A DNA stretch of 42,812 bases from a virus (Duplodnaviria; Heunggongvirae; Uroviricota; Caudoviricetes). Each line of letters opens with the position of its first letter. Within the stretch, counting starts at the first letter, position 1. Location: IMG/VR virus record IMGVR_UViG_2872192773_000007; one strand, given 5' to 3'. Under the pieces are notes generated by a model that had not been told where the DNA came from, made no database searches, and saw nothing but the letters and a program-made list of their open reading frames with translations. Positions 8,377 to 26,333 of the stretch are shown piece after piece. The position numbers and the translations under genes are program-made.

Positions 8377-8628
8377 GTGGATATAACCGTTTGTACTTAT
8401 AAACCTGGGGGCATCGTGGAAAAAATAAAGAAACTATTTAGTAGCAAATACGCAGTCATACGTCGTGATGACCTGTCAGTTATAGTCGAAATGGATTACT
8501 TCCCTGAAACCCCAAAATCAATAATGTATCGTAATGGTCGAAAGGCAATTTTTTTACCGATGAGGGTAAGTGACATTATGGGAAATGATAAACTGCTGGA
8601 TGAATTGCGAGTCAGAGCATCCTGTTAG
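8377..8628 (+). CDS. Hypothetical AT-rich moron-like ORF
   Basis: 83-aa ORF with a GTG start (an alternative GTG lies at VEKIKK). It sits in a markedly AT-rich stretch. No motif recognised. Confidence 0.3.
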   Translation: MDITVCTYKPGGIVEKIKKLFSSKYAVIRRDDLSVIVEMDYFPETPKSIMYRNGRKAIFLPMRVSDIMGNDKLLDELRVRASC

Positions 8629-8645: not shown

Positions 8646-9149
8646 TTACTGATAGTGTTTTATGTTCAGATAATGCCCGATGACCTTGTCATGCAGCTCC
8701 ACCGATTTTGAGAACGACAGTGACTTCCGTACCAGCCTTGCCAGATGTTGTCTCAGATTCAGATTATGTCGCTCAATGCGCTGAGTGTAACGCTTGCTGA
8801 TAACGTGCAGCTTTCCCTTCAGGCGTGATTCATACAGCGGACAGCCATCCGTCATCCATACCACGACCTCAAAGGCCGACAGCAGGCTCAGAAGACGCTC
8901 CAGTGTGGCCAGAGTGCGTTCACCGAAGACGTGCGCCACAACCGTCCTCCGTATCCTGTCATACGCGTAAAACAGCCAGCGCTGACGTGATTTAGCACCG
9001 ACGTAGCCCCAATGTTCGTCCATTTCAGCGCAGACAATCACATCACTGCCCGGTTGTATGCGCGAGGTTACCGACTGCGGCCTGAGTTTTTTAAGTGACG
9101 TAAAACCGTGTTGAGGCCAACGCCCATAATGCGTGCACTGGCGCGACAT
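8646..9149 (-). CDS. insB: IS1 InsB
   Basis: 167-aa ORF, identical to the copy at 16643..17146. Confidence 0.9.
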
Positions 9150-9343
9150 CCGACGCCATTCATGGCCATATCAATGATTTTCTGGTGCGTACCGGGCTGA
9201 GAGGCGGTGTAAGTGAACTGTAGTTGCCATGTTTTACGGCAATGAGAGCAGAGATAGCGCTGATGTCCGGCAGTGCTTTTGCCGTTACGCACCACGCCTT
9301 CAGTAGCGGAGCAGGAAGGACATCTGATGGAAATGGAAGCCAC
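9068..9343 (-). CDS. insA: IS1 InsA
   Basis: 91-aa [42 protein letters not shown], with a zinc finger and an HTH. Confidence 0.9.
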
Positions 9344-9476
9344 GCAAGCACCTTAAAATCACCATCATACACTAAATCAGTAAGTTGGCAGCATTACCCT
9401 GTTAGTATTGGCATTAATTCTGGTATACTACATAACGGGCTGAACACCCATTCTACTGCGCCAGCGGAGAACTACG

Positions 9477-10076
9477 ATGGCGCATATACAACTGGTCAAA
9501 CAAACCTCTTCCGGATTACTTCTCCCGGCGACGCCGGAGAGTTGCGATTTTTTGCATCAAATCAAAATAGGTGAGTGGATACACGCAGACTTTAAGCGTG
9601 TGCGTAACTACGCATTCCACAAGCGTTTTTTCAAACTCCTGCAACTGGGATTTGATTACTGGACTCCGGTCGGTGGGGCGATCACGCCTCGCGAACGAAA
9701 ACTGGTATCAGGCTTCGTTGATTACCTGTGCGAATCAGTAGGTCGGGAACACACTCCAGCCCTGAGTGATGCCGCAGAGCAATACCTTAATACAGTTGCG
9801 ACATGCAGAACCCGGGATACGGCATTGCTAAAGTCGTTTGACGCTTTCCGCGAGTGGGTAACCATTCAGGCCGGATTTTACACCGAGCATATTTATCCTG
9901 ATGGTAGTCGTGGGCGCAGGGCAAAATCTATCGCATTTGCGAACATGGACGAAACCGAGTTTCAGCAGGTTTATAAATCTGTACTGAATGTGCTGTGGAA
10001 CTGGATCCTGTTCCGTAAATTTTCCTCTCCGGAGGAAGTCGAAAATGTGGCCGCGCAGTTACTGGAGTTTGCGTAA
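9477..10076 (+). CDS. DUF1367-type lambdoid nin-region protein
   Basis: 199-aa ORF with RBS GGAGA. Its position directly upstream of the ybcO-like gene and Q, together with the sequence, fits the YdfU/DUF1367 family (from memory). Confidence 0.6.
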   Translation: MAHIQLVKQTSSGLLLPATPESCDFLHQIKIGEWIHADFKRVRNYAFHKRFFKLLQLGFDYWTPVGGAITPRERKLVSGFVDYLCESVGREHTPALSDAAEQYLNTVATCRTRDTALLKSFDAFREWVTIQAGFYTEHIYPDGSRGRRAKSIAFANMDETEFQQVYKSVLNVLWNWILFRKFSSPEEVENVAAQLLEFA

Positions 10077-10366
10077 TGGTGGATTTACGTAAAGCGGCGC
10101 GGGGGCAGATGTGCACCGTCAGAATTCCTGGCTACTGCAATCACAATCCCGAAACTTCTGTGCTGGCGCATTACAGGCTGGCGGGGACGTGCGGAACAGC
10201 GACAAAACCACACGATATGCAGGCAGCGATTGCCTGTAGCTCATGCCACGATTTAATCGACGGGCGGGTAAAAACCAGCGATTACACCAAAGAAGAATTA
10301 CGCCTGATGCATGCAGAAGGTGTTTTTCGCACACAAGAAATCTGGAGAAAGGAAGGTTATTTATGA
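10076..10366 (+). CDS. YbcO-like protein (DUF1364, putative nuclease)
   Basis: 96 aa: MVDLRKAARGQMCTVRIPGYCNHNPETSVLAHYRLAG.CGT.TKP. This closely parallels DLP12 YbcO as I recall it. Confidence 0.75.
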   Translation: MVDLRKAARGQMCTVRIPGYCNHNPETSVLAHYRLAGTCGTATKPHDMQAAIACSSCHDLIDGRVKTSDYTKEELRLMHAEGVFRTQEIWRKEGYL

Positions 10367-10917
10367 TTTACCCAACAAATACAGGCAAAAGCGGGGAACA
10401 CCTTCGTCTCACCACGCTGGAAAGTGTCTGGATTCAGGGAAAACTGCGCATGTGGGGGCGCTGGTCGTATATTGGCGGCGGTAAGACGGGAAATATGTTT
10501 AACCAGTTGCTGGCATCCAAAAAATTGACGAAAACAGCCGTCAATGAAGCCCTGCGCAGGATGAAAAAAGCGGGAATAGAGAAACCTGAGCTGGAAGCGT
10601 TTTTGCGAGAGATGATCAATGGCAAGCAAAAGACCTGGCTGGCGCATTGTACTGATGCAGAGGCGTTATGTATTGATAGAGTCATAAGTGAGGTGCTGGC
10701 AGAGCATCCTGGATTGATTAGTGTCCTCCGGCAACGGTATGAAGGGCGGGGGATGACTAAGCGTAAAATGGCTGAATTGCTGAATGACGCACACCCTGAG
10801 TGGTGTTTCCGGACGTGCTGCAGTCGGGTAGATGTATGGCTAAATCTTGCTGAATATATGCTCTATCTACCGATGCGTGATGCATTCTCTTCCGGGGATC
10901 TAAAAACCGTTTGTTGA
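10363..10917 (+). CDS. Late-gene antiterminator Q-like protein (DUF1133 type)
   Basis: 184 aa from ATG 10363, with an ATGA overlap with the previous gene. It contains the motif KLRMWGRWS and is followed by a promoter plus short-transcript terminator, the classic Q/PR'/tR' layout. Confidence 0.7.
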   Translation: MIYPTNTGKSGEHLRLTTLESVWIQGKLRMWGRWSYIGGGKTGNMFNQLLASKKLTKTAVNEALRRMKKAGIEKPELEAFLREMINGKQKTWLAHCTDAEALCIDRVISEVLAEHPGLISVLRQRYEGRGMTKRKMAELLNDAHPEWCFRTCCSRVDVWLNLAEYMLYLPMRDAFSSGDLKTVC

Positions 10918-10943
10918 CTCAATCTGTTATCCGGGGCTATATT
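10914..10943 (+). promoter_or_regulatory. Candidate late promoter (PR'-like)
   Basis: TTGACT (10914-10919), 18-bp spacer, TATATT (10938-10943). It overlaps the Q stop codon, and hairpins follow at 10951-10968. Confidence 0.55.
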
Positions 10944-11000
10944 CCTCACGCGCCAGCAAAATCTGGCGTCGGGATTGGCGTCCCGGATGTTTACGGAGCG

Positions 11001-11031
11001 ATATGAGACGCGCCCGCGTCTTTTTTCATAT
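11001..11031 (+). terminator. Rho-independent terminator (tR'-like, Q target)
   Basis: GAGACGCG-CCC-GCGTCTTTTTT, about 65 nt downstream of the candidate late promoter. Confidence 0.75.
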
Positions 11032-11304
11032 CGTTTGCACAGTCACATTCGCGATTTATGGCGGGCTGTGTGGGGGAGCCGAAAGGCTCGCCGGTTTCCG
11101 TACCCGGTTACGCCAACCCTGCACAGTTCGCCACCAGTTCGATTGGCGTCGTCGGTGGCGATAATTTCCAAATGTACGGAGTTATCGTTATGACCACTCA
11201 AATCTCTGTTGAAACTCTCTCCCCGATCACCCATAACCAGTGAGGTAGCCTGAGTTTAACGGACACTCCTTCCTGAAATAGAATGGCATCAGAAGGAGCT
11301 AATA

Positions 11305-11607
11305 ATGAGCAGAAAAACCCAACGTTACTCTAAAGAGTTCAAAGCCGAAGCTGTCAGAACGGTTCTTGAAAATCAACTTTCGATCAGTGAAGGCGCTTCC
11401 CGATTATCTCTTCCTGAAGGCACTTTAGGACAATGGGTTACCGCCGCCAGAAAAGGGCTCGGTACTCCTGGTTCCCGCACGGTGGCTGAACTGGAATCTG
11501 AAATTCTGCAACTGCGTAAGGCGTTAAATGAAGCTCGCCTTGAGCGAGATATATTAAAAAAAGCAACAGCGTATTTTGCACAGGAGTCGCTGAAAAATAC
11601 GCGTTAA
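11305..11607 (+). CDS. IS600 OrfA
   Basis: 100-aa ORF. Confidence 0.95.
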   Translation: MSRKTQRYSKEFKAEAVRTVLENQLSISEGASRLSLPEGTLGQWVTAARKGLGTPGSRTVAELESEILQLRKALNEARLERDILKKATAYFAQESLKNTR

Positions 11608-11642
11608 TCGAACAATGGCGACAACAATTTCCCATTGAAGCG

Positions 11643-12461
11643 ATGTGTCAGGTATTTGGTGTATCCAGGAGCGGTTATTACAACTGGGTACAGCATGAAC
11701 CCTCAGACAGAAAACAAAGTGATGAGCGGCTAAAACTGGAGATTAAGGTGGCACATATCCGCACTCGCGAAACATATGGAACCCGGCGGCTCCAGACGGA
11801 GCTGGCAGAGAATGGCATCATCGTTGGTCGTGACCGACTGGCACGTCTTCGTAAGGAGCTAAGGCTACGCTGTAAGCAGAAACGCAAGTTCAGAGCGACT
11901 ACGAACCCGAACCACAATCTGCCAGTTGCGCCAAATCTGCTGAACCAGACGTTCGCTCCTACAGCACCAAATCAGGTCTGGGTGGCGGACCTGACGTATG
12001 TTGCCACACAGGAGGGATGGTTGTACCTCGCTGGCATCAAAGATGTTTATACGTGTGAAATTGTCGGCTACGCCATGGGAGAGCGCATGACAAAAGAGCT
12101 GACAGGTAAAGCCCTGTTTATGGCGCTCAGGAGCCAGCGCCCACCTGCCGGGCTAATCCACCACTCTGATCGAGGTTCACAGTACTGCGCATACGATTAC
12201 CGGGTCATACAGGAGCAGTCTGGTCTGAAAACATCAATGTCGCGTAAAGGTAACTGTTACGACAACGCTCCGATGGAAAGCTTCTGGGGAACGCTGAAAA
12301 ATGAGAGCCTGAGCCACTATCGTTTTAATAACCGGGATGAAGCCATCTCAGTAATACGGGAATACATTGAGATTTTCTACAATCGTCAGCGTCGTCACTC
12401 TCGTCTGGGGAATATCTCCCCGGCAGCCTTCAGGGAAAAATATCATCAGATGGCTGCTTAA
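11643..12461 (+). CDS. IS600 OrfB transposase
   Basis: 272-aa ORF. Confidence 0.95.
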   Translation: MCQVFGVSRSGYYNWVQHEPSDRKQSDERLKLEIKVAHIRTRETYGTRRLQTELAENGIIVGRDRLARLRKELRLRCKQKRKFRATTNPNHNLPVAPNLLNQTFAPTAPNQVWVADLTYVATQEGWLYLAGIKDVYTCEIVGYAMGERMTKELTGKALFMALRSQRPPAGLIHHSDRGSQYCAYDYRVIQEQSGLKTSMSRKGNCYDNAPMESFWGTLKNESLSHYRFNNRDEAISVIREYIEIFYNRQRRHSRLGNISPAAFREKYHQMAA

Positions 12462-13222: not shown

Positions 13223-13299
13223 GGCCCTTTAGCTCAGTTGGTCAGAGCGAGCGACTCATAATCGCCAGGTCGCTGGTTCAAGTCCAGCAAGGGCCACCA
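13223..13299 (+). tRNA. tRNA with anticodon CAU (ileX/ileZ-like Ile2, or Met)
   Basis: Cloverleaf: acceptor GGCCCTT/AAGGGCC, anticodon loop CTCATAA, T-arm GCTGG-TTCAAGT-CCAGC, terminal CCA. It resembles E. coli ileX as I recall it. Confidence 0.85.
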
Positions 13300-13300
13300 A

Positions 13301-13377
13301 CCACCACTAGCTCATCCGGATAGAGCATCAACCTTCTAAGTTGACGGTGCGAGGTTCGAGTCCTCGGTGGTGGGCCA
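13301..13377 (+). tRNA. tRNA-Arg (anticodon UCU)
   Basis: Acceptor CCACCAC/GTGGTGG, anticodon arm TCAAC-CTTCTAA-GTTGA, T-arm CGAGG-TTCGAGT-CCTCG, terminal GCCA. Confidence 0.85.
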
Positions 13378-13379
13378 GC

Positions 13380-13455
<76 letters not shown>

Positions 13456-13458
13456 TAT

Positions 13459-13533
<75 letters not shown>

Positions 13534-13647
13534 TGACCTTTCTTAAAGTACTCCAACCTACTGAATCCTAAGGGATACGGCTTTAAGCCTCCTTGCAGAG
13601 TTACTTACTGTAACCCACTGTGTAACCCTCTCAGGGCATACAGACAT

Positions 13648-13720
13648 ATGATTCAGCTATCCAGTAGTCACAAACTTCCAGCAGTCTACTATCTCTACCA
13701 GCGTAACGGCGTCTACTACT
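13648..13720 (+). pseudogene. Tyrosine recombinase (integrase), N-terminal 24 codons only
   Basis: ATG 13648 encodes MIQLSSSHKLPAVYYLYQRNGVYY, ending at the IS911 end. It lies 115 nt downstream of tRNA-Gly in the same orientation, the classic tRNA-int island layout. Confidence 0.6.
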
Positions 13721-13728
13721 TGAAGTGG

Positions 13729-14897
<1,169 letters not shown>

Positions 14898-14969
14898 TGG
14901 AGCACCTGTGTTGTTCTGAGGTGAGCATATCACCTCTGTTCAGGTGGCCAAATTCAGTGTGCCACTTCA

Positions 14970-15389
14970 CTACCCGGTAAGAGCATCAAGAACGCTCATA
15001 GTGACCGCTGTGTGCCTCTGGTCGATGGGGCCTATGGTTTTATATTGGCTGACTTTATGGCGCTTGTAGAGACCCGTAGAGGCGCTGACGGTGATGACGC
15101 TATGGTGTTCGATGGTCTGCGTCTCATGAAGAACGGTTACGGTGAGCAGGTGAGTAAATGGTTTAATCGGACGTTGTTGCCTAAAGTCCTCGTAGACCGT
15201 AGCGGCTTAGCGTTTCACTCGTTTAGACATACAGTTGCGACCCAGTTAAAACAACATGGGGTCGAGTTGGCGTATGCACAGGCGATCATGGGGCATAGTT
15301 CAGGGTCTATTACGTACGACCGTTATGCTAAAGAGGTCGAGGTTGATAGGCTGGTCAATGTGATGGCTGATGTTTATAAGGAGACCTAG
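14970..15389 (+). pseudogene. Tyrosine recombinase C-terminal catalytic domain (5'-deleted)
   Basis: The in-frame translation from 14970 is LPGKSIKNAHSDRCVPLV...LAFHSFRHTVATQL...GHSSGSITYDRY. This gives the R...HxxR...Y catalytic residues, while the core-binding domain is missing. Confidence 0.8.
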
Positions 15390-15477
15390 AGGAGACCATA
15401 GTCTAGGATGACACTTACTACAGACCTGTGTGGTCATGTTTTTGACTCATAGTTTTCTCTACTTATCAAGGGATAAT

Positions 15478-15500
15478 TAATACGACTCACTATAGGGAGA
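15478..15500 (+). promoter_or_regulatory. Exact consensus bacteriophage T7 RNA polymerase class III promoter
   Basis: TAATACGACTCACTATAGGGAGA is read directly at 15478-15500 and is preceded by AATT. The predicted +1 is G15495, with transcription towards the repeats and the Rha-like gene. Confidence 0.9.
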
Positions 15501-15697
15501 AGGGACACAAAAAGTTTTCTCTTCTAGGACAACTAACCGTAACTTATCGCATCCTTTCAGGGGCGGGATGACCAATTACAGACACCAAGCGTTCTACTTA
15601 AAGTGAATGCTTCCTGTGTGCTCTGGGTCAGTCGATAAGTGAATAGCAATAAGACACAATCATCTTAATTATGGTCTCTAGTCCCTACAGGGGCTTA

Positions 15698-15791
15698 ACT
15701 TAAAGTTAACTTAAAGACACAATTAAAGATTAACTTATAGTATTACTTAAAGTTAACTTAAAGACACAATTAGAGATTAACTTTAAGTATT
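15698..15791 (+). repeat. 47-bp tandem repeat x2 built from TTAAAG-type submotifs
   Basis: Unit 1 (15698-15744) is ACTTAAAGTTAACTTAAAGACACAATTAAAGATTAACTTATAGTATT. Unit 2 (15745-15791) differs at 3 positions. Confidence 0.9.
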
Positions 15792-15882
15792 AAATAAAAG
15801 ATTTAATTAAAGACCAATTAAAGATTAACTCTAAGGGAATACCTTAAGGGGTGATGATATTTATAATAATCAATCACCAAAC

Positions 15883-15935
15883 CTATAGGTCTTCTCTAGG
15901 GTCTCTCTATAGGTCTCTCTAGGGTCTCCTCTAGG
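15883..15935 (+). repeat. Array of about 11-bp CTCTA(T)AGGGTCT repeats
   Basis: The sequence reads CTATAGGTCTTCTCTAGGGTCTCTCTATAGGTCTCTCTAGGGTCTCCTCTAGG. Confidence 0.85.
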
Positions 15936-15954
15936 CATTACCCCCAGAAGCTAA

Positions 15955-15986
15955 CTCTATGGCCCTCTATGGTCCTCTATGGCCCT
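15955..15986 (+). repeat. 10-bp tandem repeat CTCTATGGCC x3
   Basis: CTCTATGGCC CTCTATGGTC CTCTATGGCC CT. Confidence 0.9.
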
Positions 15987-16031
15987 GTACGTCATTCTTT
16001 AGGATGCCCTGTAGTTTCGTATAGCCTGATG

Positions 16032-16070
16032 CCTAGAGAGACCCTAGAGTGGCTCCTAGAGAGACCCTCC
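16032..16070 (-). repeat. Inverted copies of the CTCTAGGGTCTC repeat
   Basis: CCTAGAGAGACCCTAGAG ... CCTAGAGAGACCCTCC is the reverse complement of the 15883-15935 units. The two sets form a dyad around the 10-bp triplet repeat. Confidence 0.85.
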
Positions 16071-16228
16071 CAGTAGCTCCGCACAGCTACATCGTCATCA
16101 TCATAGTATTCAATCTCAAAGTCATTCTGTTTGCATCCTGTTGTCCTGCTGGTCTCCCTTCGCTTGGGGACTTTGAGTAGGTCAGTGGGGGTGCGACTTC
16201 AGGGTGCAAACAAAAAGGAAATCAAGCG

Positions 16229-16393
16229 ATGTCTCAACAACCACAACAACCACAACAACCACAACAAGAAATCAGCATCATTAACCTCGACCAGCTTGTG
16301 TCCATGACCTCAGTTGAAATTGCTGAGCTGACAGGCAAGGAGCACCGAAATGTCCTTCGTGATATTCGTAAGATGCTCGAAGAACTTAACGCG
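16229..16393 (+). pseudogene. Rha-family phage regulatory protein, N-terminal 55 codons, truncated by IS1
   Basis: RBS AAGGAA, then MSQQPQQPQQPQQEISIINLDQLVSMTSVEIAELTGKEHRNVLRDIRKMLEEL. The segment TSxEIAELTGKxHxNVLRDIRxML is the Phage_pRha signature. IS1 starts at 16394. Confidence 0.7.
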
Positions 16394-16448
16394 GGTAATG
16401 CTGCCAACTTACTGATTTAGTGTATGATGGTGATTTTAAGGTGCTTGC

Positions 16449-16724
16449 GTGGCTTCCATTTCCATCAGATGTCCTTCCTGCTCCGCTACTGAAGGCGTGG
16501 TGCGTAACGGCAAAAGCACTGCCGGACATCAGCGCTATCTCTGCTCTCATTGCCGTAAAACATGGCAACTACAGTTCACTTACACCGCCTCTCAGCCCGG
16601 TACGCACCAGAAAATCATTGATATGGCCATGAATGGCGTCGGATGTCGCGCCAGTGCACGCATTATGGGCGTTGGCCTCAACACGGTTTTACGTCACTTA
16701 AAAAACTCAGGCCGCAGTCGGTAA
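16449..16724 (+). CDS. insA: IS1 InsA
   Basis: 91-aa ORF. Confidence 0.9.
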
Positions 16725-17146
16725 CCTCGCGCATACAACCGGGCAGTGATGTGATTGTCTGCGCTGAAATGGACGAACATTGGGGCTACGTCGGTGCTAA
16801 ATCACGTCAGCGCTGGCTGTTTTACGCGTATGACAGGATACGGAGGACGGTTGTGGCGCACGTCTTCGGTGAACGCACTCTGGCCACACTGGAGCGTCTT
16901 CTGAGCCTGCTGTCGGCCTTTGAGGTCGTGGTATGGATGACGGATGGCTGTCCGCTGTATGAATCACGCCTGAAGGGAAAGCTGCACGTTATCAGCAAGC
17001 GTTACACTCAGCGCATTGAGCGACATAATCTGAATCTGAGACAACATCTGGCAAGGCTGGTACGGAAGTCACTGTCGTTCTCAAAATCGGTGGAGCTGCA
17101 TGACAAGGTCATCGGGCATTATCTGAACATAAAACACTATCAGTAA
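16643..17146 (+). CDS. insB: IS1 InsB
   Basis: 167-aa ORF. Confidence 0.9.
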
Positions 17147-17161
17147 GTTGGAGTCATTACC

Positions 17162-18110
17162 AAAAAAAGCAACAGCGTATTTTGCACAGGAGTCGCTGAA
17201 AAATACGCGTTAATCGAACAATGGCGACAACAATTTCCCATTGAAGCGATGTGTCAGGTATTTGGTGTATCCAGGAGCGGTTATTACAACTGGGTACAGC
17301 ATGAACCCTCAGACAGAAAACAAAGTGATGAGCGGCTAAAACTGGAGATTAAGGTGGCACATATCCGCACTCGCGAAACATATGGAACCCGGCGGCTCCA
17401 GACGGAGCTGGCAGAGAATGGCATCATCGTTGGTCGTGACCGACTGGCACGTCTTCGTAAGGAGCTGAGGCTACGCTGTAAGCAGAAACGCAAGTTCAGA
17501 GCGACTACGAACCCGAACCACAATCTGCCAGTTGCGCCAAATCTGCTGAACCAGACGTTCGCTCCTACAGCACCAAATCAGGTCTGGGTGGCGGACCTGA
17601 CGTATGTTGCCACACAGGAGGGATGGTTGTACCTCGCTGGCATCAAAGATGTTTATACGTGTGAAATTGTCGGCTACGCCATGGGAGAGCGCATGACAAA
17701 AGAGCTGACAGGTAAAGCCCTGTTTATGGCGCTCAGGAGCCAGCGCCCACCTGCCGGGCTAATCCACCACTCTGATCGAGGTTCACAGTACTGCGCATAC
17801 GATTACCGGGTCATACAGGAGCAGTCTGGTCTGAAAACATCAATGTCGCGTAAAGGTAACTGTTACGACAACGCTCCGATGGAAAGCTTCTGGGGAACGC
17901 TGAAAAATGAGAGCCTGAGCCACTATCGTTTTAATAACCGGGATGAAGCCATCTCAGTAATACGGGAATACATTGAGATTTTCTACAATCGTCAGCGTCG
18001 TCACTCTCGTCTGGGGAATATCTCCCCGGCAGCCTTCAGGGAAAAATATCATCAGATGGCTGCTTAAAAAAAGAACAAATGGTAGTGTCCGCTATTGCCA
18101 GTACACCTCA
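17162..18110 (+). mobile_element. IS600, 5'-truncated (corresponds to IS600 positions 316-1264)
   Basis: It starts inside the A7 run at the end of orfA and ends at the normal right IR (...GTACACCTCA). The left 315 bp is replaced by IS1. Confidence 0.9.
17249..18067 (+). CDS. IS600 OrfB (orphan, no OrfA)
   Basis: 272-aa ORF, intact, but without orfA or a frameshift partner. Confidence 0.8.
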   Translation: MCQVFGVSRSGYYNWVQHEPSDRKQSDERLKLEIKVAHIRTRETYGTRRLQTELAENGIIVGRDRLARLRKELRLRCKQKRKFRATTNPNHNLPVAPNLLNQTFAPTAPNQVWVADLTYVATQEGWLYLAGIKDVYTCEIVGYAMGERMTKELTGKALFMALRSQRPPAGLIHHSDRGSQYCAYDYRVIQEQSGLKTSMSRKGNCYDNAPMESFWGTLKNESLSHYRFNNRDEAISVIREYIEIFYNRQRRHSRLGNISPAAFREKYHQMAA

Positions 18111-18463
18111 GTAATCCATCCAGGCCTGTTGTTGCAGAGCTTGGCGATGATTCAGGCTGGCATTTTTTCAGCCAGAGAAACCCGGATAACAGCATAGTGT
18201 TCACTGTTAACGGACAGGTAATTCCGTTAAATTACGGAAACTTCGATGCCCGCTATAAATATCGAACAGAGGGGGTACAGGATGTACGGTATGGCCATGA
18301 AATGTATTACAGCCCCGGCAGTAACACCGTTTCGTGGAGATTTTGCGCACCTTCGGGACACGGGCTGTCAGGGATGGCGATATCGGATACCGGCCGTAAC
18401 TCAGCGGATAACGTTGACGGTGTGTATTACCGACCACTGCAAAAACTGATTAATGGCACCTAG
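18111..18463 (+). pseudogene. Phage tail-fibre protein, C-terminal fragment
   Basis: Past the IS600 end the frame reads ...AELGDDSGWHFFSQRNPDNSIVFTVNGQVIPLNYG...YYRPLQKLINGT*. The TAG at 18461 is followed in frame by YNVASI*, suggesting TGG>TAG. A tfa gene follows 3 nt later. Confidence 0.65.
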
Positions 18464-18485
18464 TATAACGTAGCGAGTATTTAAC

Positions 18486-19031
18486 AATGTTGCATTTAAA
18501 AAATATTACTACGGGTAATCCGAAAACAGCAGAACAATATCAGATGACAAAACGATATTCGGTCACCTGGCTTTTTTCAGAAGACGGAAAAAACTGGTAT
18601 GAAGAGCTGAAGAATTTCGCCAGGACACAATTAAAATAACTTACACCGGAGACGGTCGCGTGGTGTGGGTCGGTAAGGATGTGACAGGCATTGAACCCCG
18701 TAACGCCAGTGTTATTGAAGTTCCTGATATTACCGCCAACCGCCGCATTACCGCGCCGGGTTACTGGTTTTACCGCAATGATGAATTTGTCTTTGACTAC
18801 AGACTCAAAGCGGAAGATGAGCGTGATGCCCTTCTGGCTCAGGTCAGTGCCCGGACAGGGGAATGGGAAGAAGACCTGTTGCTGGGGCTAATCAGCGACG
18901 AAGACCGGGAAAAACTGAAAGCGTACCGCATTTACGCGAAATCGCTGCAGGCGATGGATTTCAGTGTCATCACTGATAAAACCTCATACAACGCCATTGA
19001 ATGGCCCGCTTCTCCGGAAATTTCTTCCTGA
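18486..19031 (+). pseudogene. Tail-fibre assembly protein (Tfa), frameshifted
   Basis: [19 protein letters not shown]...[11 protein letters not shown] stops at 18638. The homologous continuation, (Q)[20 protein letters not shown]...IEWPASPEISS, lies in another frame (ORF 18660..19031). Confidence 0.7.
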
Positions 19032-19054
19032 TTTAATTTATCGCGAGAAAAACT

Positions 19055-20244
19055 ATGTCTGTAGTGATATCAGGTGCGCTGACTGATGGCGCAGGTATCT
19101 CCATGTCCGGATACCATATTATTCTGAAATCCCGGGTAAACACCCCGGAAGTGGTGATGCACACTGTTGCTGATGTGATGACAGGAAACGATGGTGAATA
19201 CTGTTTCCATGCGCGGACTGGAAAATATGGTGTGTATCTGAAACAGGACTGGCACAACGAGTACAACGTTGGCGACATTGCTGTATATGAGGACTCAAAG
19301 CCCGGTACGCTGAATGACTTTCTGATTGCTCCTGATGAGGGCGACCTGAAACCAGATGTCGTCAAACGCTTTGAGGAAATGGTGGCGCAGGCGCAGCAGA
19401 GCAGGCCAAAAATGACATTGATGCTGCGCTGACCGGCACTCTGAAAACGGCTAACCATCTGTCTGAAATCGCAGCAGCAGGCGAAAAGGCACAACAGAAG
19501 TCCCGGGATAATCTGGGGCTGAAAAGTGCGGCCACGATGGAAGCACAGAGCGACATTTACGACCGGACAAAAGGCCGTCTGGCGATACCCGGCGCATTCG
19601 GCTTTGGGTGTGCTTTTCTGCCTGAAGATGTTATCCGTTTTGACACTAAGAGTGATTTCCTGGCCTGGGTAAGGAATGCGCTGCCAGGTGAATATTCCGT
19701 TGCTGGCCCCTACGGCATCATCATACCCGACACACGGTTTGAAGGGGTGCTCAGCATCCGGTGGACTGATGCACGCCCTGAGACAACAGAACCGCGGTAC
19801 AGAGCCAAATCCCTTACTTTTTACGGCATTAACGGCCCCATTTATCACACCCGCTACCGCTACTGGCCCATATCCAGACTGACTGACTGGGTGAAAATAA
19901 ATATAACCACAGAAGATATTATTTACAGAATCGTGGCGAGCTCTGTCCGCAACAGATGGGGAGACCCTGACATTGGCGGGCTGATTATTGCTGCGTACCA
20001 GGGAGAAGCTGACGGTGATAAAGTCATCAGACTTGTCAGGGGGCAGTCATACAGAGGCTCACGACTGGGACCGGTGGGGATTTCAGTGCCCAGTACTCCC
20101 ACCGGAACGTATATAGCATCCCCACAATTTTTCATTACGGGATGTTCAGAGCATTCATTACCGGGGTCATATTGCGCCCTGTCCGGGGTGCCGGATGCTC
20201 ATGTCTCTGGCGCAATGCCCGGGCTTTTTATTCGCACATCGTGA
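19055..20244 (+). pseudogene. Tail-fibre protein (prophage tail-fibre N-terminal domain), frameshifted
   Basis: The N-terminus MSVVISGALTDGAGISMSGYHIILKSRVN...VYEDSKPGTLNDFL matches the StfR-type N-domain. The frame breaks near 19400, and the reading AKNDIDAALTG...MEAQSDIY... continues in frame +1 to 20244. Confidence 0.7.
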
Positions 20245-20254
20245 GGAATGCACC

Positions 20255-20818
20255 GTGGAAATTAAAAAAATCATTAATCCCCGTTATACCGAAAGTGGCG
20301 CAGTAGACTGTGACGTTTTTTTTGACGACAGGGACCAGGCAGTCCCCTACACAGCCACCGCTGATGATGTCGCTCCGACGGGTCAGCAAATCTGGCAGGA
20401 ACTGCAAAGCGGCAAATGGGGTGAGATAGCCCCATTCACTGTGACACCAGAAATGCTGGAAGCGGCCAGAGAGGCCAGACGTCAGGAAATTGAAGCATGG
20501 CGCGCAGAACAGGAGGCGAAGCTGTTCACGTTTGAATGGAACGGTCGTATCTGGAATGCTGGTCCCGACTCACTGGGCCGCCTGTCCCCGGTAGTCATGC
20601 TGGCAAAATCTGTCACAGCACAAACACATATGGCGTGGAGCGATGCCGATAATCAGCAGGTGAAACTGTCGATGCCGGAACTGGAAGAACTGGCGGCAGC
20701 AATGGTGCAGGCGCAGGTCGATCGCAACGATGAGATTTATCGCCGTCAGCGGGAGCTGAAGGAAGAGCTGAATAGTCTGAAGGATTTGAATTCGGTTAGG
20801 AATTTTATCGTGGAATAA
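20255..20818 (+). CDS. Tail-fibre-associated/assembly-like protein (DUF4376-like)
   Basis: GTG 20255 with RBS GAGGA, 187 aa: VEIKKIINPRYTESGAVDCDVFFDD...FEWNGRIWNAGPDSLGRL. A near-identical paralogue lies at 37413..37976. Confidence 0.7.
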   Translation: MEIKKIINPRYTESGAVDCDVFFDDRDQAVPYTATADDVAPTGQQIWQELQSGKWGEIAPFTVTPEMLEAAREARRQEIEAWRAEQEAKLFTFEWNGRIWNAGPDSLGRLSPVVMLAKSVTAQTHMAWSDADNQQVKLSMPELEELAAAMVQAQVDRNDEIYRRQRELKEELNSLKDLNSVRNFIVE

Positions 20819-21018: not shown

Positions 21019-21876
21019 CTAATTGGGTGATAACAGATCCTGTGTATGGGCGTTTCCCTTTGTGCGTGCGTTGATGCTGGTAACGGTAAACGTCATGATG
21101 AACACGACCGCGAATAAGACGACAATCGTCGGAGCTGGTGCGCTGTCGATAAAAAAGGACAGCCAGACACCAGTCATTGACACTATTACCGATATGCCAG
21201 TCGCCAGTAGGAGCGCAATATGAAAGCGTTGTGTCAGGAGTACTGCAATGGCGCCAGGCGCAATGAGCAGAGAAATAGAGAGAATGATACCTACTGCTTT
21301 CAGCGTCGCCACAATGGTCAGGGAAACCATGCACAGCAGCCCATAATGCAGCCATCTCGTATGCAAACCGCTTACCTGCGCCTGTTGATAATCAAAGCTG
21401 AACAGCAAAAAATCCCGCCATTTTACGCTAATAACAAGTGTAACCAGCCCGGCAATAATCACCGTCTGGATTATATCGCCGATGGTTATCCCGAGCATGT
21501 CGCCGAAAAGAATATGGTCAAGATGTACGTCTGGTTTAATTGCAATATACAAGATCAGACCTGCGGCAAACATGCCAGAAAAAACAATCCCCATAACTGT
21601 ATCTTGCTTGATTCGGCTGTTGTCTTTCAGGTATCCCGTCGCCACCGCGCAGAATACTCCGGCGACGAATGCCCCTGTAGCCAGAGGTAACCCCAGAATC
21701 CAGGTAAGCACGATGCCAGGAAAAACCGCATGACTCATCGCGTCACCCATCAGTGCCCAACCTTTCAGGACCAGAAAGACCGACAGCAGCGCACAGGGTA
21801 TGGAAACTACCAGTGAAATCAGCAGTGCGTGACTCATAAAGGTGAACTGCAGTGGCTCCAGTAATAATGCCATCAT
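21019..21876 (-). CDS. sitD: Iron/manganese ABC transporter permease SitD
   Basis: 285-aa polytopic membrane ORF. It is the last gene of a 4-gene operon with overlapping start and stop codons. Confidence 0.9.
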   Translation of the reverse strand: MMALLLEPLQFTFMSHALLISLVVSIPCALLSVFLVLKGWALMGDAMSHAVFPGIVLTWILGLPLATGAFVAGVFCAVATGYLKDNSRIKQDTVMGIVFSGMFAAGLILYIAIKPDVHLDHILFGDMLGITIGDIIQTVIIAGLVTLVISVKWRDFLLFSFDYQQAQVSGLHTRWLHYGLLCMVSLTIVATLKAVGIILSISLLIAPGAIAVLLTQRFHIALLLATGISVIVSMTGVWLSFFIDSAPAPTIVVLFAVVFIMTFTVTSINARTKGNAHTQDLLSPN

Positions 21877-22730
21877 GAGCGATCCTCCAGCGCTTTATGC
21901 GCACGCCGACGATTTGCCAAAAGTCCATGGGTGGGCGCAAATACAAATGCTAAAAGAAACAGCAGTGTCTGCGCCACCACGATGATTCCACCTGTCGCGC
22001 CGTCCAGAAAGTAACTGACCCACGCGCCGAGGAAACTGGTTACACTGCCAATAGTTACAGCAATTATGAGCAGGCGGGGAAAACGATCGGTTAACAACCA
22101 TGCTGTTGCACCGGGAGTCACCACCAGACAGATCACCAGAAACGCACCAACCGTTTGCAGCGCCGCAACGGTCGAAACCGACAGCAGGGTGAAGAAGAGG
22201 ATTTTTAATCTGCCCGGATGTAATCCAATAGCACGGGCGTGATTCTCGTCGAAAAAGGTCACCATAAGATCTTTCCATTTGAAAAAAAGCACGATGATCG
22301 AGAGAATGCCAATGATAGTGAGTTGCAGGATATCCGCCGGATCGATTGCCAGAATATTGCCCAGGACGATGGTCTGAATGTTCACGGATGTCGGGTTCAA
22401 TGACACCATAAACAGCCCCAGGCCAAAAAAGGACGAGAAGATCAGGCCGATGATGGCATCTTCTTTTAAGCGGGTGCGTTGGTTAAGAAACAGCATGCTG
22501 CCCGCTGCCAGTCCGCCGGAAAAGAAGGCTCCCAGAGAAAACGGAAGCCCCAGCATATATGCCCCCGCAACACCCGGGACAATAGAGTGCGACAGCGCAT
22601 CGCCAATCAGCGACCAGCCTTTTAGCATCAGATAGCATGACAGGAAAGCGCAGAGACCGCCGACCATTGCCGAGACCCACATCGCATTGAGCATATATTC
22701 ATAGCTGAAGGGTTCCAGTAGCACGTTCAT
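21873..22730 (-). CDS. sitC: Iron/manganese ABC transporter permease SitC
   Basis: 285-aa polytopic membrane ORF of the ABC-3 family. Confidence 0.9.
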
Positions 22731-23554
22731 CTTGCTTCCCTCTGCACCGCTGACGGTCGATGTGCCACAAAAGGGCGTTCATCGTCAGTAATAATGCTTT
22801 CTTCCGAGCCGTTAAGTGTGACATGGCGCAGTACGCCGCTAAAAGCCAGCTCCAGGTTCTCGGCTGTAAAAGTGGTGTCTGTCGGCCCGCTTGCCAGGAC
22901 GGTGCCTTTGACCATGACCGTATAATCGCAAAATGTCGTGACTGAGCCGAGATTGTGCGTTGAGACAAGCATCGTTTTGCCTTCCGCGCGTAACTCCCTC
23001 AACAGGCTGATGATTTTCGCTTCGGTTTTCACATCAACGCCGGTAAAAGGTTCATCCAGCAGGATCACATCACCCTGCTGTGCAATTGCTCTCGCCAGAA
23101 AGACGCGTTTCTTTTGTCCACCGGAAAGCTCGCCGATTTGACGATGGCGAAAATCCACCATATCGACACGTTCCAGCGCATCGGTGACAATCTGACGATC
23201 CCTCTTTTTGGCTATACGCAACATACCCATATGCCCATAGCGGCCCATCATCACCACATCTTCCACCAGTACAGGAAATGACCAGTCAACCTCTTCTGAC
23301 TGAGGGACGTAGGCAACCAGGTTTTTCTGTAGCGCCTGTCGCGTGGGAATACCCAGAACAGATATCTTTCCGCTGGTCAGACGCACAAATCCCATAATCG
23401 CTTTAAACAACGTCGATTTTCCGGAACCGTTTACCCCAACCAGAGCGGCAATAGATCCACTTGGTACTGTGAAGGATGCATCGCGCAGTGCTGTGTGCCC
23501 GTTACGCCAGGTGACAGTAACATCATTAACGACAATGCCTGCAGATTGCATCAT
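22727..23554 (-). CDS. sitB: Iron/manganese ABC transporter ATPase SitB
   Basis: 275 aa with Walker [13 protein letters not shown] signature LSGGQKKR and Walker B ILLDEP. Confidence 0.95.
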
Positions 23555-24468
23555 TATTTCTCCCTTTTCCCGGCTTTAATTCCCTGTACCAGCGTACTGG
23601 TAGTAACCTTAAGAAGGTCGATATACGTAGGTACCGGGCCGTTTTCTGTGCTCAGGGAATCGACATAGAGCACACCGCCGTAGTGTGCGCCGGTTTCACG
23701 CGCAACCTGACGCGCTGGTTTATCGGAAATCGTACTCTCGCTAAAGACTGCCGGGATATGATTTTTCTTAACTATATCAACAACCTTACGTACCTGCTGC
23801 GGTGTTCCTTGTTGATCGGCATTAATCGGCCACAGATAAAGCTCTTTTAGCCCCAAATCGCGTGCGAGATAAGAAAAAGCCCCTTCACTGGTGACCATCC
23901 ATCGCTGATTCTCAGGGAGTTCCGTAATCTGCTTACGCAGGGGGGCAAGGGTTTGGGTAATCTTGGCTTTATAAGTATCGGCATTACGTTGGTAGGTTTG
24001 TGCATTTGCCGGATCGTATTTTATCAACGCATCACGAATATTATCGACGTAAATCAGAGCATTATCTGGCGACATCCATGCATGGGGATTAGGTTTGCCC
24101 TCATAGGGTCCTTCGGTGATCCCTACTGGCGTCACACCCGAAGAGACAATTACTTCTGGAACCCCATTGAGATGCTGGTAAAAGCGTTGGAACCACAATT
24201 CCAGATTCATACCATTGGCGAGAATCAGTTGTGCCCCCTGCGCACGTTTAATATCGCCAGGGGTAGGCTGATACTCATGAATTTCTGCACCAGGCTTGGT
24301 TATGGATGAGACTTCTGCAGCATCTCCAGCCACGTTTTTGGCCATATCCGCGATGATGGTAAATGTTGTAATGACCTTGAATTTTTCAGTTGCACTTGCC
24401 TGAAATGCGATCGAGCAGGTGAGGGCGAGGCACCCCAAGAGCATGGTTACTTTTTTTATTGAGTGCAT
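23554..24468 (-). CDS. sitA: Periplasmic metal-binding protein SitA
   Basis: 304 aa with a signal peptide ([26 protein letters not shown]) and a cluster-9 (ZnuA/MntC-type) solute-binding fold. Confidence 0.95.
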
Positions 24469-24940: not shown

Positions 24941-25580
24941 CTACGATAACCGCGCATTCAACATGGCTATCTGTTCGTCGTTCATGTCATCAATCCACAT
25001 ACCGTAAATTTCATACACCATTTGCGCAGTTTCATGCCCCATCTGGCTGGCTATAAATGCCGGGTTCGCTCCTGCCGTCAACAGCCAGCAGGCAAAAGTA
25101 TGTCGCGTGTGGTACGGATTACGGCGGCGAATACCAGCACGTTTTACTGCTGCATTCCATCTTGTACCCAAACTGCTTACCGAGTAATAAGGTTTCTGTT
25201 TTTCGTTACACACCCTGGGCATGAAAACAAAATGCAGTTTTTGTTTTTCAGTTCTGCCGTACTCCCGATGATAAAAAGTGATTTCGCTTTTGCGATGATG
25301 CCCGGTCAGTTTGTATTGCTCCTTCAGTGCTTCAAGAGCCGGCTGCAGTAATGTTACCGTCCGGATCCCGGCATTTGTTTTTGGGGGACCGAACATATCA
25401 AGTATCGTCAGGTTTCTTCTGACATTCACAATTCCCTTCTCGAAATCCACATCCTCCCACGCCAGAGCTGCCAGTTCCCCGTGACGAAGCCCGGAGTAAA
25501 CGGCAAATTTCCACAAGTTTTGGCTCTGTCCTTTTTCACTTTCCATTAATGCATTGAATTCTGTTTTAGATAACGGGTCA
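24941..25580 (-). pseudogene. Lambda-type integrase, C-terminal catalytic part (cut by IS1)
   Basis: ...LRHGELAALAWEDVDF...PYHTRHTFACWLLTAGANPAFIASQMGHETAQMVYEIYGMWI. The residues upstream of 25580 come from the IS1 end. Confidence 0.85.
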
Positions 25581-25635
25581 GGTAATGCTGCCAACTTACT
25601 GATTTAGTGTATGATGGTGATTTTAAGGTGCTTGC

Positions 25636-25911
25636 GTGGCTTCCATTTCCATCAGATGTCCTTCCTGCTCCGCTACTGAAGGCGTGGTGCGTAACGGCAA
25701 AAGCACTGCCGGACATCAGCGCTATCTCTGCTCTCATTGCCGTAAAACATGGCAACTACAGTTCACTTACACCGCCTCTCAGCCCGGTACGCACCAGAAA
25801 ATCATTGATATGGCCATGAATGGCGTCGGATGTCGCGCCAGTGCACGCATTATGGGCGTTGGCCTCAACACGGTTTTACGTCACTTAAAAAACTCAGGCC
25901 GCAGTCGGTAA
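25636..25911 (+). CDS. insA: IS1 InsA
   Basis: 91-aa ORF. Confidence 0.9.
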
Positions 25912-26333
25912 CCTCGCGCATACAACCGGGCAGTGATGTGATTGTCTGCGCTGAAATGGACGAACATTGGGGCTACGTCGGTGCTAAATCACGTCAGCGC
26001 TGGCTGTTTTACGCGTATGACAGGATACGGAGGACGGTTGTGGCGCACGTCTTCGGTGAACGCACTCTGGCCACACTGGAGCGTCTTCTGAGCCTGCTGT
26101 CGGCCTTTGAGGTCGTGGTATGGATGACGGATGGCTGGCCGCTGTATGAATCACGCCTGAAGGGAAAGCTGCACATTATCAGCAAGCGTTACACTCAGCG
26201 CATTGAGCGACATAATCTGAATCTGAGACAACATCTGGCAAGGCTGGTACGGAAGTCACTGTCGTTCTCAAAATCGGTGGAGCTGCATGACAAGGTCATC
26301 GGGCATTATCTGAACATAAAACACTATCAGTAA
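25830..26333 (+). CDS. insB: IS1 InsB (variant: W and I substitutions relative to the other two copies)
   Basis: 167-aa ORF. It reads [20 protein letters not shown] where the other copies read [20 protein letters not shown]. Confidence 0.9.

Follow-up and report, generated by a model that had tools for sequence, protein, structure and literature searches.

A stretch of 42,812 nucleotides, recorded in IMG/VR as the virus IMGVR_UViG_2872192773_000007 and here called the window, carries an exact promoter of the T7 class III type inside the remains of a small island integrated at a tRNA-Gly gene. Comparison with bacterial genomes and metagenomes revealed related islands in at least ten genera of Enterobacterales, each with promoters for the RNA polymerase (RNAP) of T7-like phages ahead of its cargo genes. 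We propose that the control region of these islands is probably a selected, phage-polymerase-responsive module that drives rightward transcription on infection. A preliminary description of the window, made from the letters alone, had stressed the position of the promoter in a bacterial chromosome and had taken T7-group promoters to be normally confined to phage genomes. The position is indeed unusual and meaningful; however, the site is not an isolated oddity but the hallmark of a mobile island family, and its recurrence across genera contradicts the supposed confinement.

The 23-mer TAATACGACTCACTATAGGGAGA at 15478–15500 of the plus strand is identical at 23/23 positions to the T7 class III consensus (−17 to +6), and AATT stands directly 5′ of it; both features had been read correctly in the preliminary description. 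It is the sole site with three or fewer mismatches in the whole 42.8-kb window. Dinucleotide-preserving shuffles produced a match in 0/100 cases, so a chance occurrence, already discounted from the letters, was rejected. Promoters take exactly this form in 279 records of T7-type phages, and the string is also found at T7 phiOR. Together with its flanks, the promoter aligned best with T7 phiOR, at 32/34 positions with a 2-nt gap (AATTAATACGACTCACTATAGGGAGA[GG]AGGGAC), and the phiOR-like context given in the preliminary description was thus correct. The initially transcribed sequence is GGGAGAAGGGACACAAAAAG, and the transcribed stretch GGGAGAAGGGACAC is unlike the phi10 context of pET vectors, which likewise agrees with the earlier reading. 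Sigma-70-like sites showed no excess over chance. Its sequence places the site among the T7 class III promoters, and it very probably is a functional promoter for T7-type RNAP.

Beyond the window, the promoter segment was detected in 91 of 5,426 complete E. coli genomes, where all 95 places are chromosomal, and in 25 metagenome contigs. Intact islands measure 4.2–6.9 kb and are bounded by direct repeats of the tRNA-Gly 3′ end; those of E. coli are inserted at the chromosomal tRNA-Gly gene next to actS, and those of Klebsiella and other genera likewise. Starting from the left attachment site (attL) in tRNA-Gly, they comprise an integrase of ~540 aa, in many cases the defense gene RAZR/PD-T7-4, one to four phage-RNAP promoters, a block of ~110 nt, an AT-rich array, a leader stem-loop, a KilA-N- or Rha-type gene with other cargo, and the right attachment site (attR). 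The non-coding region occupies ~1 kb and is followed by one to four cargo genes, with all genes on one strand. Among the carriers of intact islands are E. coli FT130, whose island type has no RAZR, NCTC9967, and E110019. Integrases more than 80% identical were found in Klebsiella, Serratia, Yersinia, Citrobacter, Raoultella, Cedecea, Plesiomonas, Rouxiella, Morganella, and Edaphovirga. Those at or below 80% identity (in Pectobacterium, Proteus, Buttiauxella, others, and at a second locus of S. flexneri SFBU1023) were treated as different elements, and the conserved ~110-nt block is absent beside them. A hairpin-plus-T-run scan detected no Tphi-like terminator at the island end.

The islands have moved between genera. 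In the river-water isolate E. coli 22F46 (L008, 2370–8803), an island of the Klebsiella type, bearing promoters of the K11/KP32 and Przondovirus types, is 93–96% identical over its full length to K. pneumoniae islands, against ~74% in the adjacent chromosome; this identity indicates a recent transfer between genera. No transfer genes are encoded in the islands, despite this cross-genus movement. At the same tRNA-Gly in E. coli 2018-05-2CC (L001, 17023–28833), the small island is followed by a second integrase, which carries an ABC-three-component-type system (DUF2326 and ‘middle component 6’) and an arsenic-resistance operon, a case of tandem accretion of islands at one attachment (att) site.

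Across these islands, the promoter is conserved within diverged surroundings. Among seven E. coli islands with four unrelated flank types, the exact T7 23-mer had a pairwise identity of 1.00, versus 0.40 and 0.37 in the 40-nt flanks; among 16 islands from ten taxa, the block-proximal 23-mer reached 0.84, versus 0.34 and 0.42. Klebsiella islands contain up to four promoters of three types. The first, AATTAGGGCACACTATAGGGAGA, is the form of phages K11, KP32, and K5, is annotated as ‘promoter’ in K11, and occurs in 309 phage records (293 from Klebsiella) at ~10 copies per genome. The second, AATTAGGTAGCACTATAGGGAGA, represents another Przondovirus type, found in 337 records (327 Klebsiella phages, 5 Przondovirus) at 11–13 copies per genome, and the third is the exact T7 form. 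The forms present in the islands of Serratia and Citrobacter, TAATACGACTCACTAATGGGAGG and TAATAGGACTCACTATTGGGAGG, match the BA14/Kvp1/285P/FE44 phage group, and the Citrobacter variant has its best match at the phiOR position of BA14/Kvp1-group phages. Closely related Klebsiella-type islands hold different specificity modules in homologous slots with identical flanks, and many combinations of specificities were observed among the 25 metagenome copies. The number of promoters per island ranges from one to four. In the Shigella/E. coli lineage, the promoter-bearing unit of 121 bp is present in one to three copies: one in the window, two in E. coli FT130 and EC17CM13, and three in the S. flexneri assembly L077. 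All promoters point toward the cargo, and extra ones lie between cargo genes. Since the 23-mer is conserved within diverged flanks, the promoter types match the phages of the host genus, and the slots are swapped, this pattern is, as far as sequence comparison can tell, one of selection for recognition by the polymerases of local phages, unlike neutral debris.

Several further promoter-like elements were observed. In Serratia islands, an additional phage-type promoter, TAATACGACTCACTAATGGAAGA, lies between cargo genes 1 and 2 (L017, 8832; L018, 2915), as promoters precede individual genes in the T7 genome. In E. coli FT130 (L002, 15380–15425), three copies of AATCAATACGA followed by CTTACTAATAGGAGACA form a degenerate promoter-like element resembling T7 phi1.1A (AATCAATACGACTCACTATAGAGGGACA); this element, which the window lacks, separates the AT-rich array from the cargo. 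A GTCAA(G/T/C) motif, which lies outside the canonical T7 promoter, precedes many island promoters of differing specificity by 8–14 nt (e.g., ...tatcaagggataat, ...gtgtcaagcattttg, ...gaagtcaacagaatt).

The DNA downstream of the promoter is also conserved. Aligned from Shigella to Morganella, the ~110-nt block has a mean column identity of 85%, and its conservation exceeds that of neighboring protein genes (it lies at 8468–8580 in L013, 7948–8060 in L017, 7930–8042 in L019, and 9425–9540 in L029). Its possible closing stem, ACTTATCG/CGATAAGT, includes one compensatory pair; its internal hairpin is replaced in Klebsiella by a different hairpin at the same place, and the fold of the block has a z-score of −1.8. 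A short open reading frame (ORF) in the block was rejected, as indels between genera shift the frame. An Rfam search over 15380–16400 identified no RNA family, returning only a spurious miRNA match (E = 0.15). The block may act as a structured RNA or as a cis-acting site in the DNA. Closer to the cargo, the conserved leader spans 16118–16228 and includes a stem-loop for which RNAalifold predicts ~21 pairs, three of them changed on both sides. When the stem-loop was scored across the alignment, 94.7% of cells were paired, compared with 40–56% when the partners were slid, and the shuffle control was marginal (38/500). The stem-loop also contains several G.U pairs that can form only in plus-strand RNA. 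These pairs, together with its conservation, argue for rightward transcription through the region and into the cargo.

Between the block and the leader lie features that resemble a T7-type replication origin. In T7-type phages, the AT-rich element following the tandem promoters phi1.1A/phi1.1B constitutes the primary origin. The AT-rich array of the window aligned with the element after phi1.1A/phi1.1B of Teseptimavirus IME15 and Ebrios at 44/52 positions, and with the left end of Kvp1, downstream of its left-end promoter, at 54/72 positions. Smith–Waterman scores against shuffled controls yielded z = 15.7, 12.7, 11.2, 6.9 (T7 ori), and 5.1. The T7 primase sites GGGTC, TGGTC, and GTGTC occur 18 times in 15390–16228, versus 4.0 ± 1.7 in shuffled sequences, a 4.5-fold enrichment that none of 500 shuffles reached. 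Many islands have tandem promoters ~110 bp apart. Downstream of the array, the window contains iterons, namely four copies of GGTCTCTCTAG (15883–15935), three of CTCTATGGCC (15955–15986), and three of the inverted CCTAGAGAGAC (16032–16068). A further array was observed in E. coli FT130 right after the integrase stop (L002, 14430–14590), where ~12 tandem copies of the 13-nt GATGACCATAGGC precede GTGGTCCTAT repeats; these may be protein-binding iterons, of which only a vestige is left in the window at 15390–15440.

Most island variants also encode a zinc-finger DUF4145 protein whose gene overlaps the integrase stop and which PADLOC assigns to PD-T7-4 (E = 2e-100). In the original screen, PD-T7-4 ‘often overlaps an integrase gene’ (Vassallo et al. 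2022, PMC9519451), and the system, later described as RAZR, defends against T7, T3, and other phages (PMC9519451; PMC13017515). RAZR is a HEPN RNase that aborts infection on assembly around the T7 portal ring (PMC13017515). The first cargo gene of every island encodes a KilA-N or Rha-type protein, and the remaining cargo includes a 157-aa protein, a DUF6971 protein, a 375-aa protein, and small membrane proteins. The cargo varies between islands, and the integrase and control region are conserved. Searches for cargo function with Pfam, PADLOC, PHROGs, and NCBIfam recovered only KilA-N, Rha, DUF6971, and DUF4145.

Based on these features, we hypothesize the following course of events. In an uninfected cell, the module would be silent, as host RNAP would not read the island promoters. 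On infection by a T7-like phage, the phage polymerase would fire these promoters and transcribe the block, the origin-like array, and the cargo. T7 inhibits host RNAP via Gp2 and Gp0.7, and a route through the phage polymerase would be immune to this shut-off. The combination of promoter, AT-rich element, and primase sites may furthermore recruit the phage replisome and amplify the island, in the manner of plasmid-borne T7 origins. The outcome could be an infection-triggered defense, a satellite-like spread of the island, or a combination of the two. We consider it probable that the promoter drives infection-triggered transcription of the cargo, whereas we give replication of the region by the phage replisome about even odds. 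Packaging of the island into virions, followed by transduction, is unlikely; it is the weakest link, because terminal repeat, pause site, packaging genes, and free copies are all lacking and RAZR would seem to oppose the use of the capsid.

A number of results weigh against this proposal. RAZR lies upstream of the promoters and was functional from its own upstream region in published work, so the promoters are not needed for RAZR defense (PMC13017515). The cargo has at most weak matches to known defense families. No replication initiator (primase, helicase, or Rep) was found among the island proteins with Pfam, PHROGs, and NCBIfam, and neither terminase, including TerS, nor capsid-remodeling families were present among these proteins. 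The AT-rich array does not abut the promoter but begins ~200 nt downstream of the start site, behind the ~110-nt block, and the islands of Morganella and Edaphovirga either lack it or have a different one. The primase pentamers are mostly located within repeat units and are therefore not independent of one another. RNA covariation lends modest support to the block and the leader, as does the folding energy to the block. The class II pause site ATCTGTT has no exact copy in seven islands, the nearest being TTCTGTT in the leader, and no homolog of the T7 or Kvp1 terminal repeat was detected. Free circular or concatemeric copies of the island were not found among the 25 metagenome contigs, none of which has terminal overlaps, nor did the small ENA/Logan contigs (the ENA ones, of 4.1–4.6 kb, begin inside the tRNA) reveal a free form. 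The three IMG/VR viral contigs, which to judge from their identifiers are apparently provirus calls from isolate genomes, showed no free form either. All metagenome, viral, and ENA contigs begin in the tRNA or display the att sites in integrated arrangement. One of the IMG/VR matches contains IS1 and looks like Shigella.

An extension of the proposed phage-responsive module is that the islands are true phage satellites, which would excise, replicate to concatemers, be packaged in T7-group capsids (an estimated 6–9 island copies per 40-kb head), and be transduced, with the promoters and end-like repeats acting as origin and packaging signals. We regard this as rather unlikely, even if it would account for much: the intact integrase and att sites, the size of 4.2–6.9 kb, the cross-genus transfer without transfer genes, the secondary integration at a tRNA-Gly inside a prophage, the phiOR-like promoter context, and the resemblance of the array to T7 SRL heptamer repeats and origins. 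Precedents also exist, since PMC13236587, citing Chung & Hinkle 1990, states that T7 replicates and packages multimeric plasmids carrying its ori, pac, and terminal repeat, and PICMIs are presented in PMC10803314 as minimalist satellites of virulent phages packaged as concatemers. Comparison with the T7 and Kvp1 ends, however, yielded short matches only, at 18/19 positions of the Kvp1 terminal repeat in one island and 19/22 of the T7 segment before the terminal repeat (z = 4.6–7.8 with mononucleotide shuffles), and mimicry of pac or terminal repeats was left unsupported. The lack of a terminal-repeat homolog, of ATCTGTT, of terminase or capsid genes, and of any free form among the metagenome, viral, and ENA/Logan contigs speaks against satellites, and RAZR, by aborting infection as portal rings form, seemingly opposes the use of helper capsids. 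It is improbable, in our estimate, that the island is the first natural satellite of the T7 group (Autographiviridae), a chromosomal ‘phagemid’ combining multi-RNAP sensing, an origin mimic, and capsid transfer while aborting its helper. Conversely, the islands could be pure defense cassettes, whose promoters would confine the production of cargo with toxic or interfering effects (DNA binders of the KilA-N/Rha type, small membrane proteins, and other proteins) to infected cells, with the origin-like DNA incidental and the integrase serving as the arrival route. This is possible, although we would not favor it. All promoters are directed at the cargo, some of them from between cargo genes; the cargo is as variable as in defense hotspots beside a conserved integrase and control region; the leader stem-loop is conserved; the multi-specificity arrays would widen the range of phages sensed; and RAZR is an anti-T7 system with experimental proof (PMC13017515). 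On the other hand, the cargo has no convincing match to a known defense family, neither the origin similarity (z up to 15.7) nor the enrichment of primase sites is easily regarded as incidental, and the ~110-nt block is left unexplained.

Captured T7-like DNA, with a promoter persisting by chance or hitch-hiking, would be expected to show the phiOR-like context and the origin-like array, and yet such inert debris is highly improbable: the promoter and a ~50-nt match aside, there is no extended similarity among 50,697 phage records, the 23-mer shows perfect conservation between flanks that have diverged, specificities are swapped in fixed slots to match the phages of each host genus, and promoter copy number varies from one to four. 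A T7-like prophage fragment was rejected on the same collection, in which blastn at normal stringency matched IS911 only and, at E ≤ 10, added only promoter and AT-rich matches. Laboratory contamination or misassembly, by which a vector T7 promoter was joined to the chromosome, might be suspected because exact T7 promoters are a standard part of cloning vectors and the segment lies between two insertion sequence (IS) elements, where misassembly is common. This possibility is negligible. A search of a plasmid collection with the promoter region gave no relevant match, and none to a pET-type vector; the transcribed sequence is unlike pET/phi10, and the same locus occurs without IS911 in S. flexneri, as well as in 91 E. 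coli chromosomes, at least ten genera, and metagenomes. An artifact, which the preliminary description had itself considered, was rejected on this chromosomal recurrence and the lack of a plasmid match, and the segment was recovered from an independent S. flexneri assembly at 99.5–99.8% identity. Finally, promoter arrays and origin mimic could act independently of any gene product, as a decoy titrating phage RNAP and replication proteins, as tandem strong class III-type promoters, origin-like DNA, and the growth of the promoter unit from one copy to three might suggest. We find this very unlikely, given that, short of massive amplification of the island, one to four sites cannot compete with hundreds of phage genomes bearing ~17 promoters apiece, and that a conserved leader and co-oriented cargo argue for use of the transcript.

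In the window, such an island survives as a relic, with its integrase broken by IS911 and its cargo by IS1 (Table 1). The 3′ end of the tRNA-Gly gene at 13459–13533 is its left attachment site: E. coli homologs of the prophage region align up to 13533 only, and 13511–13626 matches the tRNA end and left end of E. coli islands at 87–89%. This gene belongs to a prophage tRNA cluster (13223–13533) of Ile/Met-CAT, Arg-TCT, Thr-TGT, and Gly-TCC, and the island is thus nested inside a prophage, in a prophage tRNA-Gly rather than at the chromosomal glyU site. The end of the IS911 copy matches the element annotated in phage Sf6, and 1,111 bp of the integrase gene have been lost in its place. The 140-codon integrase remnant is 97% identical by tblastn to residues 400–539 of the E. 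coli island integrase, and Pfam Phage_integrase matches its full-length homolog. In an independent S. flexneri assembly (L077), the same locus is 99.5–99.8% identical but free of IS911, with an intact 534-aa integrase (its cluster numbers 769 member sequences) and three tandem exact promoters in the 121-bp unit. The window variant has no RAZR gene detectable by tblastn with RAZR, and the integrase stop at 15389 is directly followed by 839 bp of repeat-rich non-coding DNA (15390–16228) that carries the promoter.

At the other end, an IS1 inverted repeat beginning at ~16394 terminates the Rha-family gene. All close homologs of its product are likewise truncated and mostly derive from S. flexneri, including 5a M90T; one cluster of them is spread over 141 contigs, and when a full-length counterpart of the fragment was sought, only truncated copies came up. 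The start of the gene contains a perfect (CAACAACCA)x3.7 repeat (16235–16267) encoding QQP repeats, which could be a slippage-prone tract. The independent S. flexneri assemblies and the recurring truncated Rha product establish the promoter segment as a genuine, lineage-wide feature of S. flexneri. The promoter, conserved block, array, and leader are intact in the window, where transcription by T7 RNAP would still be expected, without further effect.

Table 1. Features of the island copy and its left boundary in the window.
Feature	Position	Strand	Remarks
tRNA-Gly, anticodon UCC	13459..13533	+	Detected by ARAGORN; last gene of the lambdoid-prophage tRNA cluster
Island left end (187 bp), including the first 24 integrase codons (ATG at 13649)	13534..13720	+	99.8% identity to L077 1–1213
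IS911 (IS3 family), outside the island proper	13721..14969	-	Terminal inverted repeats TGAAGTGG... at both ends
Tyrosine integrase, 3′ part, pseudogene	14970..15389	+	Residues ~400–539, catalytic HxxR...Y
Promoter-bearing repeat unit, ~121 bp	15402..15529	+	Single copy in the window
T7 class III-type promoter, exact	15478..15500	+	Predicted start G 15495; directed at the cargo
Conserved block, ~110 nt	15536..15650	+	In every island of the family; 5′ part of the predicted phage-polymerase transcript
AT-rich array of TTAACTTAAAG / TTAAAGAC units	15695..15848	+	Detected by TRF and a repeat finder
Short AT-rich hairpin GGTGATGA...TCAATCACC, closing the array	15850..15878	+	Also in E. coli and Klebsiella islands
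Iteron region	15883..16068		Rich in T7 primase pentamers; variable between islands
Conserved extended stem-loop, leader	16132..16195	+	Just upstream of the first cargo gene
Rha-family cargo gene, 5′ end (55 codons)	16229..16393	+	Pfam Phage_pRha, E = 1.2e-9; truncated by IS1

Compared with known systems, the window promoter shares with T7 phiOR the identical 23 bp (−17 to +6), the upstream AATT, and the transcribed motif AGGGAC. It differs from phiOR in lying in a bacterial island, in being followed by the ~110-nt block, and in having neither a terminal repeat nor gene 19.5 after it. The islands resemble the T7 primary origin in their tandem promoters ~110 bp apart, their AT-rich array, and their enrichment of primase pentamers, and phage-RNAP promoters are directed into the origin-like region as in a T7-type origin (one in the window, two to three in its relatives, and up to four in Klebsiella). 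Unlike in the T7 origin, the AT-rich element is ~200 nt away, expanded to an array of 11/23/47-bp units, and absent in some genera. The likeness to the RAZR/PD-T7-4 locus is direct, given that most islands carry RAZR overlapping the integrase stop; the RAZR papers, however, make no mention of adjacent phage-polymerase promoters, an origin-like array, or cargo, and the window variant is without RAZR (PMC9519451; PMC13017515).

As small integrase-bearing islands in tRNA genes, often with anti-phage genes, satellites such as the P4-like elements, PICIs, PLE, and PICMIs are similar, and such satellites are said to stay silent until a specific phage infects (PMC10085698, PMC10803314). PICMIs are similarly tiny and reliant on a virulent helper (PMC10803314). 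The small island is bounded by att sites and has an integrase, as satellites do, and in the window this integrase is disrupted. The islands differ from known satellites in that their sensor is a promoter for single-subunit phage RNAP, arranged in multi-specificity arrays. Because they lack a replication initiator and packaging functions, we have not classified them as phage satellites. Engineered T7 phagemids and transducing plasmids, likewise small DNAs with a T7 promoter and origin features, need a pac site and terminal repeat according to PMC13236587 (citing Chung & Hinkle 1990), whereas the island has no terminal-repeat homolog.

Phage-responsive mobile and defense islands are known; arrays of promoters for single-subunit polymerases, together with an origin mimic, set the present family apart. 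In the full-text literature, with subscription-only papers outside its scope, no account was found of phage-polymerase promoters in this island or of a T7-group satellite, and the island family is widespread and apparently undescribed. To our knowledge, no bacterial element has been described that senses the private RNA polymerase of T7 relatives, even though the T7 group is among the best-studied viruses. If the proposed phage-responsive module operates as we suggest, infection would be sensed in a new way, through the phage’s own polymerase and probably its replisome, bypassing the shut-off of host transcription. The swappable promoter arrays would then constitute a record of the T7-like phages faced by a lineage. 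Mobilization by T7-like phages, if it occurs, would explain why a major group of virulent phages seems to have no known satellites, and also how RAZR/PD-T7-4 spreads between genera. In practical terms, wild E. coli, Shigella, and Klebsiella carriers hold strong T7/K11-type promoters in their chromosomes, which is relevant to T7-based expression, phage therapy with Autographiviridae, and biocontainment, and the natural promoter variants and leader elements could serve as parts.

Outside the island, the window is rich in IS elements, with at least three copies of IS1, IS911, and two copies of another IS3-family element. They saturate the stretches 8646–12461, 13721–14969, 16394–18067, and 25546–26333 and interrupt genes of the lambdoid prophage, including NinB-, Rus-, and Q-like ORFs (9477–10917) and tail-fiber-like ORFs (18095–20818). 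A second integrase gene (24941–25594, minus strand) is likewise cut by IS1. Adjoining the prophage remnants, an ABC-type metal uptake operon (21019–24468, minus strand) encodes a periplasmic binding protein, an ATPase, and two permeases, and resembles sitABCD.

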